From contig JAZTZY010000013.1 in NCBI GenBank assembly GCA_045637705.1, positions 11,154 to 75,153 of the forward strand: a stretch of 64,000 bases of DNA, written 5' to 3'. The position numbers and the translations under genes are program-made. Below the pieces are notes generated by a model. The model had not been told where the DNA came from and did not search any database. It saw only the letters and a list, made by a program, of their open reading frames with translations. The stretch is from Acutalibacteraceae bacterium. Lineage in GTDB: Bacteria > Bacillota > Clostridia > Oscillospirales > Acutalibacteraceae. Positions 56,367 to 63,742 of the stretch are shown piece after piece. The stretch's first letter is position 1. Each line of letters begins with the position of its first letter.

Positions 56367-56425
56367 TGTGAATGACATCCCAAATCCGAACTAATGCGGT
56401 TCGATTGAGATGTCATTTTATTTTT
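56367..56425 (+). repeat. Terminator-like hairpin, copy 1 of an approximately 55-nt direct repeat (tgaatgacatcccaaatccgaactaatgcggttcgattgagatgtcatttt)
   Basis: Stem aatgacatc/gatgtcatt with inner cgaac/gttcg, followed by a T-run. About 85% identical to 63684-63738. Confidence 0.7.
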
Positions 56426-56561
56426 ATAAACTTAGTAAGGAAGAGGCTTTACGGCACTTTCTTATTTTAATTTTAATCGAACCATTAAATTCGAAAAATG
56501 TCAAAATCTGTGTTGAAAAACTGAAATTGCAAGTAAAACGAACCATACCGGTTCGATTTTT

Positions 56562-57692
56562 TTATGCCTTTTTATGTCTGTTGAAGTACTCGTTTTCTGT
56601 ATCATTTGGAGTTCGGTTTCTGTTAATCTTATGCGGTCTTTTACTATTATAAAATTCTATATATTTATCTATACTTTCTTTAAACTCTTTCTCTGAACGA
56701 TAGTTGTTTCTATAGAGTTCTTCTGCCTTTAATGATTTGAAGAAAGACTCCATAACGGAATTATCATACGGTGTACCGCTTCTTGATAGGGAGCGAATAA
56801 TTCCCAGTGTTTTACAAAACTCAATAAAAGTGCGGGATGTATAATTAGCGCCTCTGTCACTGTGGAAGATTAGTCCTTCTATTGGCATACGATCGTAGTA
56901 TGCTTTGCTAAGAGTTCTCTTGGTTAATTGTGTGCTGTTCTTGCTTGAAATTCCATAGGCGACTACTTTTCTTGCATAAAGGTCAATAATTACACAGATA
57001 TAATATTTTATATTTTTGAGAGAAAAATATGTAACATCACTAACCCAAGCCTGGTTCGGTTCTGTAGCTACAAATCGCTGAGATAATATATTTTCTTTTC
57101 TTTGTTTGTTCATTTCGTAGAGCTTTTTTGATCCACCGCGTATACTGAACCAGCCATTTTCGTGCATAATATCAGCGACCGTCTTTTCGGCAACTACATA
57201 ACCTCGATTTCTGAGTATGGCATTGATTTTAGCTGCACCAAAAATCTGGTTGCTCTCATTAAAAATTTCTTCGATAATAGGAGTTATTTCATTCTTTTTA
57301 CGGGCGTAAGATGTGTTTTCATTTGCATTTCTTAGAATGTGATTGTAATAGCTTCCTTTAGCTACTTTCAGGGCATCACAAAGAAGTGTAATCGAGTAAG
57401 TTTCAGATAAATCTTTGATAACTTCATATCGTTCATGTAGTGGAGCGTTTACAGGGCAAGGAGACATTTGTAAAACCTCTACCATTTTCTCCAACTTTTC
57501 ACACCGCTGTTTTAGGATCCTGACATCTGTCATATTTATCGGTTTTCGTTTTGTTGTATTATCAGTATTTAACCACGAGTACAGGGTGCTTTTAGAAATA
57601 CCTGTATTTTTACAAATACTAGATAATGTTTCGCCTGAACGATACCGTGATACAATTTCCTTTTTCTGTTCTTCTGAATAGTTTTTTCTCAT
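56562..57692 (-). mobile_element. IS3/IS481-superfamily DDE (rve) transposase gene, single uninterrupted 376-aa ORF
   Basis: N-terminal HTH plus leucine-zipper-like region (ISKSTLYSWL...LEKMVEVLQ), and an rve core with D (WVSDVTYF), D (HSDRGANYTS) and E motifs. Element ends not resolved. Confidence 0.75.
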
Positions 57693-57968
57693 ATTGTGAG
57701 CCTCCTAAAAGTTTTTAGACTCAATAATACAACATTTTCTTAAAAAAGTGAACACACTGATACTGCGACACTAACACTAATGCGATTAGTTTTACAAGTT
57801 TTAGACTCGAATTTTTATTTAGTGTGAAAAATCGTGATTAAATAATTGTAGGGGAAAGAGATTTGAATAGTGACAAAAACTAACTAAAAAAAGACTTTAT
57901 CACTTAATATTGAACAATTTACAAATTATGATATAATAAACTTAAATACAACCAAGGAGGTGAAACCA

Positions 57969-61904: not shown

Positions 61905-62459
61905 ATGAAAGTAGAGCAGGCATTTTACTTTAAAATTATGCTTATATGCGGATACAGTGATGAACTGTTTGAATACATTGAAAATACTCTGAATGAACAA
62001 ACTTCCTATGAAGAAGTGATTGTTGACCTTGCCTTTTGTGGATATAATGAAAAACAAATGTTGTCTGTTTTAGAATCATACATACGGCGGAAGAAAGAAA
62101 AAGTTGATTTTGATATCGTTGTTGACAAAGCATTCAGCTTTCTTCAGAATAAATATCTTGACAGCGAAACATCACTTGAAGCTTTGGTCAAACTGATGTA
62201 CCGAATAGGCCAACTTTCAGAGTTAAATGAAGAGCATACAGAACCTTGGTTTACGATGACAATTTTTGGTGAATTTTATGAAGATGCAGAAAAAGGATAC
62301 ATAGATAAGGATGAATACCTTGAGTATTTGAAATCATTTATATTTGAAAGAAAATACTATAATGAGTTTCAGTTTTATAAACCTGTAATACAACAATCAA
62401 AAATTAAAATATATTTACAAAATCTGATAAACAAAATAAAATTATGGAAAGGAAGATAA
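61905..62459 (+). CDS. Acidic cytoplasmic protein of unknown function, translationally coupled to rtcB
   Basis: AGGAGG RBS, 184 aa. Its stop lies 3 nt before the rtcB ATG. Confidence 0.5.
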   Translation: MKVEQAFYFKIMLICGYSDELFEYIENTLNEQTSYEEVIVDLAFCGYNEKQMLSVLESYIRRKKEKVDFDIVVDKAFSFLQNKYLDSETSLEALVKLMYRIGQLSELNEEHTEPWFTMTIFGEFYEDAEKGYIDKDEYLEYLKSFIFERKYYNEFQFYKPVIQQSKIKIYLQNLINKIKLWKGR

Positions 62460-62461
62460 CT

Positions 62462-63682
62462 ATGTTAGAAATCAGCGGAAAGTTTTGTACCGCAAAGGTT
62501 TTTATTGATACAGTTGAAGATACCGCCAAGGAGCAGATTAAAACACTCTGCGACCAGAGCTTTGCCGAAGGGTGTAAAATCCGCATTATGCCTGACGTTC
62601 ACGCAGGTGCAGGCTGTGTAATCGGCTTTACAGCTAACCTTGGAGCAAGGGTTATTCCTAACATTGTCGGTGTTGACATCGGATGTGGTATGCTTACGGT
62701 TGACCTTGGTTTTAACGATGTGGATTTTGAAAAGCTCGACCGAATCATAAGAGATAAAATCCCTTCAGGTATGGAGGTTCAGCCTGGCAGACTTATCCGT
62801 TTGCCCGAAATACAAAATCTTCATTGCTACAGAGAGCTTAAGGATGCCAAAAGACTTGAGAGAAGCGTAGGCTCACTTGGTGGCGGTAATCATTTCATTG
62901 AGATTGATGTTGACGACGAGGGAAGAAGATACCTTGTTATTCACTCAGGCAGCCGTAATTTAGGAAAGCAGGTTGCTGATATTTATCAGAAAATGGCTAT
63001 TGAGATTCACCGTGGTATTGAGGAATACTGGGCAGAGCGTGACAGAGTAATTACCGAATACAAGGCTCAGGGCAGAAGAAAAGAAATAGAATCAACCTTA
63101 AAGGAAATGAAGAAAGCCTTTCAGTTAAAGGTTACAGAAGTTCCTGAAGAGCTTTGCTACCTTGAGGGCAAATACCGTGATATGTATCTTCACGATATGC
63201 AGTTCTGTCAGCAGTTTGCTCACCTTAACCGTTTCATGATGGCTAAGCTTATACTTAACAATCTTTTCGGTAAAGAGGTTGAGGATTTCGAGCATTTTGA
63301 GACAGTGCACAATTATATTGATATGGAATCAAACATAATCCGTAAGGGTGCAGTATCTGCTAAGAACGGTGAAAAGCTTCTTATCCCTATCAATATGCGT
63401 GACGGAAGCCTTATTTGTGTCGGCAAGGGCAATGAGGACTGGAACTGTTCGGCTCCTCACGGTGCAGGTAGACTTTTCAGTAGAAATACTGCAAAGGATA
63501 AGTTTACCGTTGAGGAGTTTCAGAAGAGCATGGAAGGAATTTTCAGCACTTGCATCAGTGACAGAACTCTTGACGAAAGTCCTATGGCATATAAGAATAT
63601 GGACGATATAGTTAACAATATTACTTCTACGGCAGATATTGTTAAGGTTATTAAGCCTGTGTATAATTTCAAGGCGGAATAA
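62462..63682 (+). CDS. rtcB: RNA 3'-phosphate/5'-OH ligase RtcB
   Basis: MPDVHAGAGCVIGF, GGGNHFIEI and APHGAGR metal/GTP-binding motifs. About 406 aa. Confidence 0.9.
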   Translation: MLEISGKFCTAKVFIDTVEDTAKEQIKTLCDQSFAEGCKIRIMPDVHAGAGCVIGFTANLGARVIPNIVGVDIGCGMLTVDLGFNDVDFEKLDRIIRDKIPSGMEVQPGRLIRLPEIQNLHCYRELKDAKRLERSVGSLGGGNHFIEIDVDDEGRRYLVIHSGSRNLGKQVADIYQKMAIEIHRGIEEYWAERDRVITEYKAQGRRKEIESTLKEMKKAFQLKVTEVPEELCYLEGKYRDMYLHDMQFCQQFAHLNRFMMAKLILNNLFGKEVEDFEHFETVHNYIDMESNIIRKGAVSAKNGEKLLIPINMRDGSLICVGKGNEDWNCSAPHGAGRLFSRNTAKDKFTVEEFQKSMEGIFSTCISDRTLDESPMAYKNMDDIVNNITSTADIVKVIKPVYNFKAE

Positions 63683-63742
63683 AGTGAATGACATCTCAAA
63701 TCTGAACCAATGCGGTTAGATGGAGATGTCTTTTGTTTTTTA
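63683..63742 (+). repeat. Terminator-like hairpin, copy 2 of the approximately 55-nt direct repeat
   Basis: gtgaatgacatctcaaatctgaaccaatgcggttagatggagatgtcttttgtttttt. Abuts the rtcB stop exactly as copy 1 abuts tRNA-Cys. Confidence 0.7.

Follow-up and report, generated by a model that had tools for sequence, protein, structure and literature searches.

The window analysed here is a 64-kb stretch of DNA from an Acutalibacteraceae bacterium, and its subject is a segment of about 7.3 kb (56367-63742) that begins at the 3' end of a tRNA-Cys gene and is bracketed by two copies of a short, terminator-like repeat. All coordinates are positions in this window; the 70 comparison loci, drawn from other genomes and metagenomes, are labelled L001-L070. 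The tRNA-Cys gene is the final gene of a Val-Asp-Gly-Cys operon. Behind it lie the first copy of the repeat, an insertion sequence (IS) transposase gene that is antisense to the tRNA operon, a pair of WYL genes, a non-coding RNA region, genes for an SPFH protein and for a protein of unknown function, and rtcB, after whose stop codon the repeat occurs again. An initial annotation of the sequence had listed this same gene content, and had remarked that no integrase is present; both statements agree with searches of the open reading frames (ORFs) of 56367-63742 against Pfam and NCBIfam. The features that bear on the nature of the repeat are these:

56292-56366, plus strand: tRNA-Cys(GCA), called by ARAGORN and matching the Rfam tRNA model at 65.9 bits; the IS tip lies 2 nt past its CCA.
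56368-56426, plus strand: repeat copy 1, consisting of terminal hairpin 1 and a T-run, with its stem at 56370-56418 around ATCCGAAC-N6-GGTTCGAT (fold and covariation).
56369-57796, minus strand: IS#1, a complete IS3-family IS of 1428 bp (~1.43 kb), whose tips on the plus strand read TGAAT... and ...TTTTACA (TG...CA).
56434-56475, plus strand: hairpin 2 (AAGGAAG...CTTTCTT) and a T-run, a second terminator-like module (fold).
56476-56560: inner right end, with the invariant ATCGAACC followed by hairpin 3 (alignment; a terminator scan gives matches on both strands).
56562-57692, minus strand: transposase, 376 aa in a single ORF, with Pfam domains HTH_Tnp_1, HTH_21, rve, rve_3 and rve_2.
57724-57752, minus strand: promoter-like site of the transposase gene, TTCACT-17-TATTAT (promoter scan and conservation).
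63685-63758, plus strand: repeat copy 2, read here as a 75-nt right-end stump of a second IS (IS#2), made up of hairpin 1 with its T-run and a few bases on the way to hairpin 2 (profile positions 1-75 only).

The repeat pair is real, and its copies lie where the initial annotation placed them, in direct orientation and about as alike as it had estimated. Copy 1 (56368-56426) starts 1 nt past the CCA of tRNA-Cys and copy 2 (63684-63742) starts 1 nt past the stop codon of rtcB (63680-63682), and the two are identical at 51 of 59 positions (86%). In ungapped comparison over increasing lengths the identity is 42/47, 51/59 and 60/75 (80%), and the likeness is gone past about 75 nt. The 34-nt core pattern GTGAATGACATCYCAAATCYGAACYAATGCGGTT matches the window only at 56368 and 63684, on the plus strand in both cases, and had no match in 100 shuffles. 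What did not survive is the idea of a free-standing unit of 55 nt: alignment of the loci identifies copy 1 as the head (the first ~60 nt) of a conserved element of about 190 nt (56369-56560) which reaches the stop codon of the transposase gene. A profile of this longer element finds the same two places in the 64-kb window and no others. Nor does the motif turn out to belong to a common terminator family scattered over many loci. When one genome per species was scanned for the exact pattern, 11 genomes had it, each at a single locus, and these were Acutalibacteraceae or other metagenome-assembled genomes of Clostridia; a looser version of the motif, run over metagenome contigs, contributed 14 further true copies; and the profile found one to three copies per comparison locus. 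A scan of viral contigs yielded no copies of the repeat, a search of plasmids for the IS gave one weak, unannotated match, and Rfam contained no match for the ~190-nt element. The 255 nt past copy 2 (63745-64000) had no blastn match in any of the 70 comparison loci, and look-ups by exact protein sequence with RtcB (as the 412-aa ORF), IspF and the DUF421 protein brought up no further contig from this strain.

The element has a sharp boundary on its outer side and none between itself and the transposase gene. It starts at TGAAT(G/C)ACATCC in some 18 distinct upstream flanks from other genomes and metagenomes, which include tRNA-Cys with four different spacers, tRNA-Asn(GTT) in L046, the ends of protein genes, intergenic DNA and the rtcB stop codon. 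Within the species-genome set it lies directly behind tRNA-Cys in some genomes and behind unrelated genes in others. Of the 14 metagenome copies, whose upstream DNA is mostly not tRNA, 12 have the same transposase gene behind them on the opposite strand, and a transposase with 65-99% amino acid identity to that of the window stands in this arrangement in L004, L006, L008, L013, L020-22, L024, L025, L029, L032, L033, L040, L042, L043 and L045-49. Near-identical and 75%-identical transposases found by protein search again have the element downstream. Three copies, L007, L011 and L013-B, have no transposase gene yet retain IS remnants. At tRNA-Cys genes free of the IS (L002 and L010), unrelated terminators follow directly after the CCA. 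Finally, copy 2 is 91.7% identical to the IS end of L002, as against 86% to copy 1; since it is nearer to the IS ends of other species than to copy 1, it did not arise by duplication within this genome.

As far as sequence comparison can tell, therefore, the repeat forms the outermost part of an IS3-family IS at its right end, and is neither tRNA-flank DNA nor a dispersed host terminator. The initial annotation had taken it for a target-derived duplication of the tRNA flank; that view is not supported, because the sequence moves with the transposase and has the same start at tRNA and non-tRNA sites. A decayed integrase-type island, its preferred origin for the segment, is disfavoured by the missing integrase, by the identity of the repeat as IS sequence and by the different flanks of IS-free tRNA-Cys genes. 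Its fallback, IS-mediated capture, is the reading that the evidence favours. Two other interpretations of the ~190-nt element were entertained and dropped. A tail of the tRNA operon, or a small RNA, does not accord with the metagenome copies that lie beside a transposase gene and away from tRNA-Cys, nor with the blank Rfam search. A dif/Xer-like site, suggested by an inner palindrome with arms of 8-10 bp around a 6-nt spacer and by occurrence once per genome, was rejected on the grounds that GC skew does not switch at 56.4 kb and that the element is linked to the IS; a further ground is that the conserved XerD-arm motif is absent.

The transposase of IS#1 scores 312.6 bits against the NCBIfam IS3-family equivalog NF033516, for which the cut-off is 160. 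The left end of IS#1 was placed at 57796, since past ...AGTTTT(G)nCA the window, L006/L029, L013, L021, L045 and L046 diverge from one another, so that together with the ~18 right-tip flanks there are at least six left flanks, and the element is seen in different sites. The closest tRNA-IS relative, L006, is 95.4% identical to window 55944-57793. A conserved GTGAACACA box had been considered as the left tip and was dropped, because it is better explained as the -35 element of the promoter-like site of the transposase gene. In its HTH and rve DDE core, its length of ~1.4 kb and its TG...CA tips, IS#1 resembles IS911, IS2, IS150 and the IS1447 group of Clostridia (PMC6211511). It differs from these in having a single ORF, a structured non-coding right end of ~190 nt with terminator-like hairpins and GGTTCGAT repeats, only weak likeness between its terminal inverted repeats, and no 3-4-bp target duplication in the contexts that were checked.

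The right end is the most distinctive part of the element. Either copy of the repeat can be folded as one long hairpin with interruptions, after which comes a U-run. A stable, G+C-containing hairpin with a U-run right behind it on the transcribed strand is the arrangement that defines an intrinsic (Rho-independent) terminator; a simple terminator scanner overlooks hairpin 1 on account of its internal loops. Twelve distinct versions of hairpin 1, falling into three stem types, have 92% of their cells paired and six pairs changed on both sides; the covariation score was matched in none of 500 shuffles. The hairpin is near-palindromic and reads almost alike on both strands, but several positions exchange G-C for G-U, and the G-U variants are valid on the plus strand only. 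Hairpin 2 shows a compensatory change from G-C to A-U in L004 and L007 and has a G-U pair in the window. Hairpin 3 (CGAACC-N-GGTTCG, 56539-56555) abuts the transposase stop codon and on the minus strand forms the transposase gene's own terminator. The right end contains several copies of GGTTCGAT and ATCGAACC; GGTTCGAT or its complement is present at 56398, 56476 and 56551, and the 5' arm of hairpin 1 has a further, inverted copy that is imperfect. It is proposed that the hairpins act as terminators which would stop read-through from the tRNA operon into the IS and so restore termination to the host operon.

A more distant relative, with a transposase 56% identical to that of IS#1 (P0204), carries a homologous terminal hairpin about 200 nt past its stop codon. 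The end of this element reads ATCAACCCTT-ATATCTGAACC-N6-GTTCGATA-AAGGGTTGAT followed by a T-run, and has a sharp boundary; its outer stem (ATCAACCCTT/AAGGGTTGAT) is a different one, fully compensated, around the same inner motif ATCTGAACC-N6-GTTCGAT. The inner part of its left end (..TGCGATT..ACA) is homologous to the left end of IS#1. In six of the ten places from the first look-up the P0204 unit lies 2 nt past tRNA-Arg(CCG), with other flanks elsewhere. Throughout L061-L070 (for example L061 7400-11400) the P0204 transposase is accompanied on its 5' side by a gene for a 723-aa KAP-family NTPase, and the resulting unit of ~3.9 kb has a sharp left tip, TGTGCCTGTACGACG..., in four different flanks; it is an IS3-family transposon whose passenger may serve in defence. 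In L065 and L067 a 19-nt copy of the tRNA-Arg 3' end (tggcccgcccgaagggatt) lies about 250 nt to the left of this unit, on the far side from the intact tRNA-Arg, and is one more displaced piece of tRNA that goes with this IS lineage. The same 14 nt, ATTGTGCTATTTCG, abut the right tip in two different IS subfamilies, at L045 (~5970-5993) and at L061/L054. They resemble the inner part of the P0204 left end, CGAAATCGCACAAT, without its outer 13 nt, and may be what is left of head-to-tail IS junctions or of an insertion event in a sequence like an inverted repeat (IR).

The DNA between IS#1 and copy 2 is occupied by a cassette that ends in rtcB:

57797-57905, plus strand: spacer from the IS left end to the cassette promoter, shared with L013 only (83.6% identity over window 57799-57960).
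57906-63682, plus strand: accessory RtcB cassette, the same block being found in L012 and L014-L019 with borders at window 57906/57956 and 63681/63682.
57910-57937, plus strand: cassette promoter.
57969-59207, plus strand: WYL protein (WYL1).
59207-60124, plus strand: WYL/WCX protein.
60125-60665, plus strand: conserved non-coding RNA region of 541 nt, with a tRNA-like core at 60298-60377.
60666-61769, plus strand: SPFH/Band-7 protein.
61905-62459, plus strand: small protein.
62462-63682, plus strand: RtcB, 406 aa (Pfam RtcB, 213 bits).

Three of the start codons given here lie downstream of those of the longest ORFs (57960, 61863 and 62444), which are probably too far upstream: homologues have uniform lengths (WYL1 412 aa, the small protein 184-185 aa, RtcB 406 aa), and 57969, 61905 and 62462 are therefore the likely starts. 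PADLOC recognises only generic WYL models within the cassette. Four other settings, of which two (L012 and L018) are Tn4451-like, contain the block 57906-63682 at 84-93% nucleotide identity. It lies beside TnpV in L012 (11264-11914); within a Tn4451-like mobilisable element in L018 (1724-12194), which carries TnpV, RepA_N, a Mob_Pre relaxase and a large serine recombinase, and whose RtcB is 97% identical; between a GH77 gene and a nicotinamide mononucleotide (NMN) transporter gene in L014-17; and beside an extra WYL gene in L019. A native terminator, GAGCAGAG...CTCTGCTC, follows rtcB in all four of these settings (L012/14/18/19) and is gone from the window. In L006 the tRNA cluster, the repeat and the IS are present at 95% identity, and an AraC-like gene stands in place of the cassette. 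The GC content of the cassette is 37.6%, compared with 42.5% for the rest of the window. Its absence from L006, its other settings and its low GC content together identify the cassette as accessory and horizontally mobile, so that on this point the initial annotation was right.

The non-coding region (60125-60665) is conserved at 88-97%, more so than the flanking coding DNA: in L014 it stands at 88%, where the block as a whole has 83.6%, and in L012/18/19 at 94-97%. ARAGORN makes an 80-nt tRNA-like call at 60298-60377, with an 'anticodon' of Lys(TTT) in the window and of Asn(GTT) in L014-17, and the consensus fold contains two T-arm-like hairpins; the Rfam models for Y-RNA/YrlA do not match the region at E<=5. 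The RNA looks like an uncharacterised, Y-RNA-like partner of RtcB. In L013 (4107-7690) the SPFH gene is replaced by one for a DUF2828/DUF7788 protein (497 aa), and the non-coding gap is 1.4 kb long with three tRNA-like calls (undetermined, Met and Phe); it follows that the cassette is modular around the WYL pair and RtcB. Systems of RNA repair centred on RtcB were reportedly treated by Burroughs and Aravind in 2016. Like the rsr-yrlBA-rtcBA operon of Salmonella (PMC7790460), the cassette encodes an RtcB ligase together with a conserved non-coding RNA that has a putative tRNA-like domain, under a dedicated ligand-sensing regulator. In contrast to that operon, no RtcA, RtcR (CARF-sigma54) or Ro60/Rsr is found among the cassette proteins; an SPFH/Band-7 protein and a small protein are added, and regulation is presumably by the WYL/WCX pair.

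Copy 2 belongs to another IS subtype than copy 1, in the same orientation. It provides the only hairpin and T-run after rtcB and stands where the native terminator was. Its origin is illuminated by L013, whose RtcB is 96% identical and in which tRNA-Cys is followed by IS#1 (with an AACCCTC hairpin subtype) and, across the same IS-cassette junction (83.6%), by the cassette. Beyond the cassette the 3' part of the native terminator survives; next come a 25-nt tRNA-Cys 3' end in decayed form and a complete right end (GACATCC subtype) together with 75 nt of transposase 3' codons, and after these a lipoprotein/ABC operon and a third unit of decayed tRNA and right end. Here the second IS copy is preserved as a longer orthologous stump of ~265 nt, including the transposase 3' codons, and the variant CTTTTG after the stem occurs only in copy 2 and in L013-B. 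Since the spacer between IS and cassette is shared with L013, the junction is ancestral to both. This is the sole other instance of the unit, and it is at the same tRNA-Cys site.

Some further features of these loci may be recorded. Decayed 25-nt tRNA-Cys 3' ends precede displaced right ends at L013 8963-8987 and 12520-12544 and at about 50-75 in L041 (oriented). They are identical to tRNA-Cys at 15-17 of 25 positions in fixed register, all of them (L013-B, L013-C, L041) begin at the T-arm GGTTC, and they share substitutions (for example ...GTACTGCCA in L013-C and L041) despite different upstream flanks. A conserved operon follows the right-end remnant in the four species of L001, L002, L010 and L013; its products are two lipoproteins, one of 95 aa whose tail is rich in CxxC and one of 305 aa, as well as an ABC ATPase and an FtsX-like permease. 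Between tRNA-Cys and the right-end remnant L002 and L010 have small cargo (an XRE regulator; a 104-aa and a 528-aa protein).

The segment, on this evidence, appears to be an IS-flanked accessory cassette resembling in its layout a composite transposon or translocatable unit. In the proposed history, IS#1, cassette and IS#2 would already have stood behind tRNA-Cys in the common ancestor of the window and L013 lineages. Along the line leading to the window IS#2 would then have been trimmed to 75 nt, and a deletion next to the IS, with its endpoint exactly at the IS tip, would have joined the rtcB stop codon to the tip of IS#2. Deletions that end at an IS tip are typical of IS-adjacent deletions. 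The cassette itself might have reached a resident IS as a circle of IS and cargo, or through recombination between IS copies. For the first route there is a parallel in an IS2-like (IS3-family) composite transposon with direct IS copies, the 'megacircle' of Burkholderia thailandensis, which inserts as a circle of IS and cargo beside a resident IS (PMC6350997); a circle landing in this way would recreate the layout of the window. As in the megacircle, and in the translocatable units of IS26, the cargo appears to lie between two direct IS copies, and the megacircle transposase is likewise of the IS3 family. The difference is that the second IS is here a 75-nt stump, so that the unit is no longer movable by that route. 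Taken as a whole, the account given here, of a repeat that is an IS end, an IS-bounded mobile RtcB cargo and a stump of a second IS, is considered likely to be correct.

Several observations weigh against it. No significant terminal inverted repeats were found in IS#1 by seed search or local alignment, the end-versus-end score being 19 compared with 19.0 +/- 2.8 for shuffles, and the two ends can be linked by eye only through short co-varying blocks (CTAATGCG; CTGTTACGG/CTGTAACGG). No 3-4-bp target duplication is seen in four contexts (ATG/AGT in the window, ATG/TAA in L006, TGA/TAT in L013 and TCG/TTT in L045), for which rearrangement at a later time or targeted insertion could be responsible. 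The transposase is encoded by a single ORF, without a split into orfA and orfB, and is 376-382 aa long in relatives; IS3-family members with a single ORF do exist, and this does not bar membership. L001, L002 and L010 have the ~190-nt end without any recognisable transposase remnant, from which a free-standing function of the end is possible; the right end may also be kept for a role useful to the host, as a terminator or perhaps a promoter. Lastly, tRNA fragments that start at the T-arm would not be predicted from simple IS transposition and would fit an integrase-type event; they would be explained either by integrase crossover in the T-loop or by use of the T-arm as a surrogate IS end, the 25 nt being part of a longer mobile unit.

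That last point is an argument for a classical tRNA island, in which a site-specific integrase, since lost, would have inserted the 7.3-kb segment at the 3' flank of tRNA-Cys and the repeats would be target-derived attachment (att) sites, attL and attR. As in the islands of tyrosine integrases, accessory DNA begins at the tRNA 3' end between direct repeats, and in L013 and L041 the displaced repeats are preceded by decayed tRNA-Cys ends starting from the T-arm (GGTTCA...), the typical region of integrase crossover. The three serial units of L013 look like tandem island accretion, and L002 and L010 have cargo between tRNA-Cys and the displaced repeat. However, neither a tyrosine nor a serine integrase is found in the window segment 56367-63742, in L013, in L002 or in L010. 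The repeat excludes the tRNA, and copy 2 abuts the rtcB stop codon without a tRNA fragment; the full copy is the one next to the tRNA and the stump the one farther away, where a displaced native flank would have left the opposite arrangement. The repeat is IS sequence that is found with the same sharp tip at non-tRNA sites, always with the transposase, while IS-free tRNA-Cys genes have other terminators and the two copies differ in subtype. The tRNA-island explanation already seems largely refuted by these comparisons, and is judged very improbable. A host origin of the repeat fares no better. The element might be a terminator or small-RNA module of a dispersed family, reused after operons, beside which the IS merely prefers to insert; it has a hairpin and a U-run with covariation and strand-specific G-U pairs, it lies without a transposase gene upstream of the lipoprotein/ABC operon in L001, L002 and L010, and it is kept at 80-90% while the neighbouring tRNA remnants decay. 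But it is not dispersed (each locus has between one and three copies, and the 64-kb window has two) and has no Rfam match; its inner part is the transposase gene's own terminator and abuts the stop codon of that gene; the distant IS relative has a homologous end with a different stem, which a host target does not explain; and the sharp boundary is on the outer side, with none between element and transposase. The probability of such a host module is put very low indeed.

Somewhat less improbable, though still unlikely, is that the transposase, the end at copy 1 and the RtcB cassette make up a single cargo transposon, whose distal end is copy 2 by virtue of the near-palindromic hairpin. In its favour, the P0204 transposase is always found with a KAP NTPase gene inside sharp ends; L045 and L049 have the DNA on the 5' side of the transposase in common, but not the right tip; the IS-cassette junction is common to the window and L013; and hairpin 1 is nearly the same on both strands. 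Against this, the true left end of P0204 is another sequence (TGTGCC...), whose homologue in the window (57771-57796) comes before the cassette; the distal copy of L013 runs into 75 nt of transposase coding sequence and so was a whole IS; and the cassette occurs without this IS in four other contexts. The reading preferred here remains that of two IS copies flanking a cassette.

Why this IS should lie behind tRNA genes is a separate question. Its right tip is 1-4 nt past the CCA of tRNA-Cys (at four junctions, with two hairpin subtypes), of tRNA-Asn(GTT) in L046 and, for the P0204 unit, of tRNA-Arg(CCG), and in every tRNA-adjacent case the orientation is the same, with the transposase gene antisense to the tRNA. 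To judge from these junctions, the seat of the lineage behind tRNA genes looks like an undescribed target preference. No report of an IS3-family element that targets tRNA 3' ends was found in the literature searched, which did not cover ISfinder. The GGTTCGAT motif of the right end resembles the universal T-arm sequence GGTTCRAAT of tRNAs, which lies ~27 nt upstream of the insertion point. It is tempting to suggest that tRNA 3' ends are selected because the T-arm resembles the motif in the IS's own end, a single DNA-binding specificity serving for both ends and target. Targeting of structured motifs is known within the family: IS1397 and ISKpn1 insert in repetitive extragenic palindromic (REP) sequences. 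IS911 inserts beside sequences like its own ends (Loot et al. 2002/2004, cited in PMC6211511). Insertion is likewise non-random and orientation-specific here, beside a short structured or IR-like motif; the target differs in being 1-4 nt after the CCA of a tRNA gene (Cys, Asn or Arg). For the retroelements Ty3 and the TRE of Dictyostelium, too, tRNA genes offer safe places to land in a gene-dense genome, but these are eukaryotic elements guided by RNA polymerase III factors (PMC5006619), and the comparison is one of analogy only. As to the tRNA operon itself, window 55934-56036, ~100 nt upstream of tRNA-Val, is conserved at 79-89% in L002, L005 and L006 and is presumably the promoter and leader of the operon. 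The genes upstream of the operon differ, being aro genes in L002/L005/L006 and IspF/DUF421 in the window, so that upstream synteny with the closest relatives is lost.

The structure in the window is of a known kind, IS3-family copies flanking cargo; what is unusual is the terminator-like, T-arm-like IS end seated right behind tRNA genes. A direct repeat beside a tRNA gene is usually annotated as an att site, and where it is instead an IS end, as here, that annotation would mis-call both the boundaries of the island and its mechanism. The lineage is common in gut and rumen Oscillospirales. A bolder proposal, which we hold to be possible but rather doubtful, is that it is the DDE-transposase counterpart of the integrases that use tRNA sites: it would recognise the T-arm, spare the tRNA operon by means of its own tandem terminators, and through surrogate ends capture tRNA 3' fragments and cargo (the RtcB operon, the KAP NTPase), so as to build integrase-free islands stacked behind tRNA genes. 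If an IS3-family element is reproducibly placed behind tRNA genes, it would be a novel case of a DDE transposase that targets safe sites. The cassette, with its WYL pair, tRNA-like RNA, SPFH protein and RtcB, would be a compact, mobile and uncharacterised RNA-repair system, and a terminator-tipped, cargo-linked IS may be one of the ways in which modules for defence or repair, RtcB operons among them, come to be placed at the tRNA loci of gut Clostridia.

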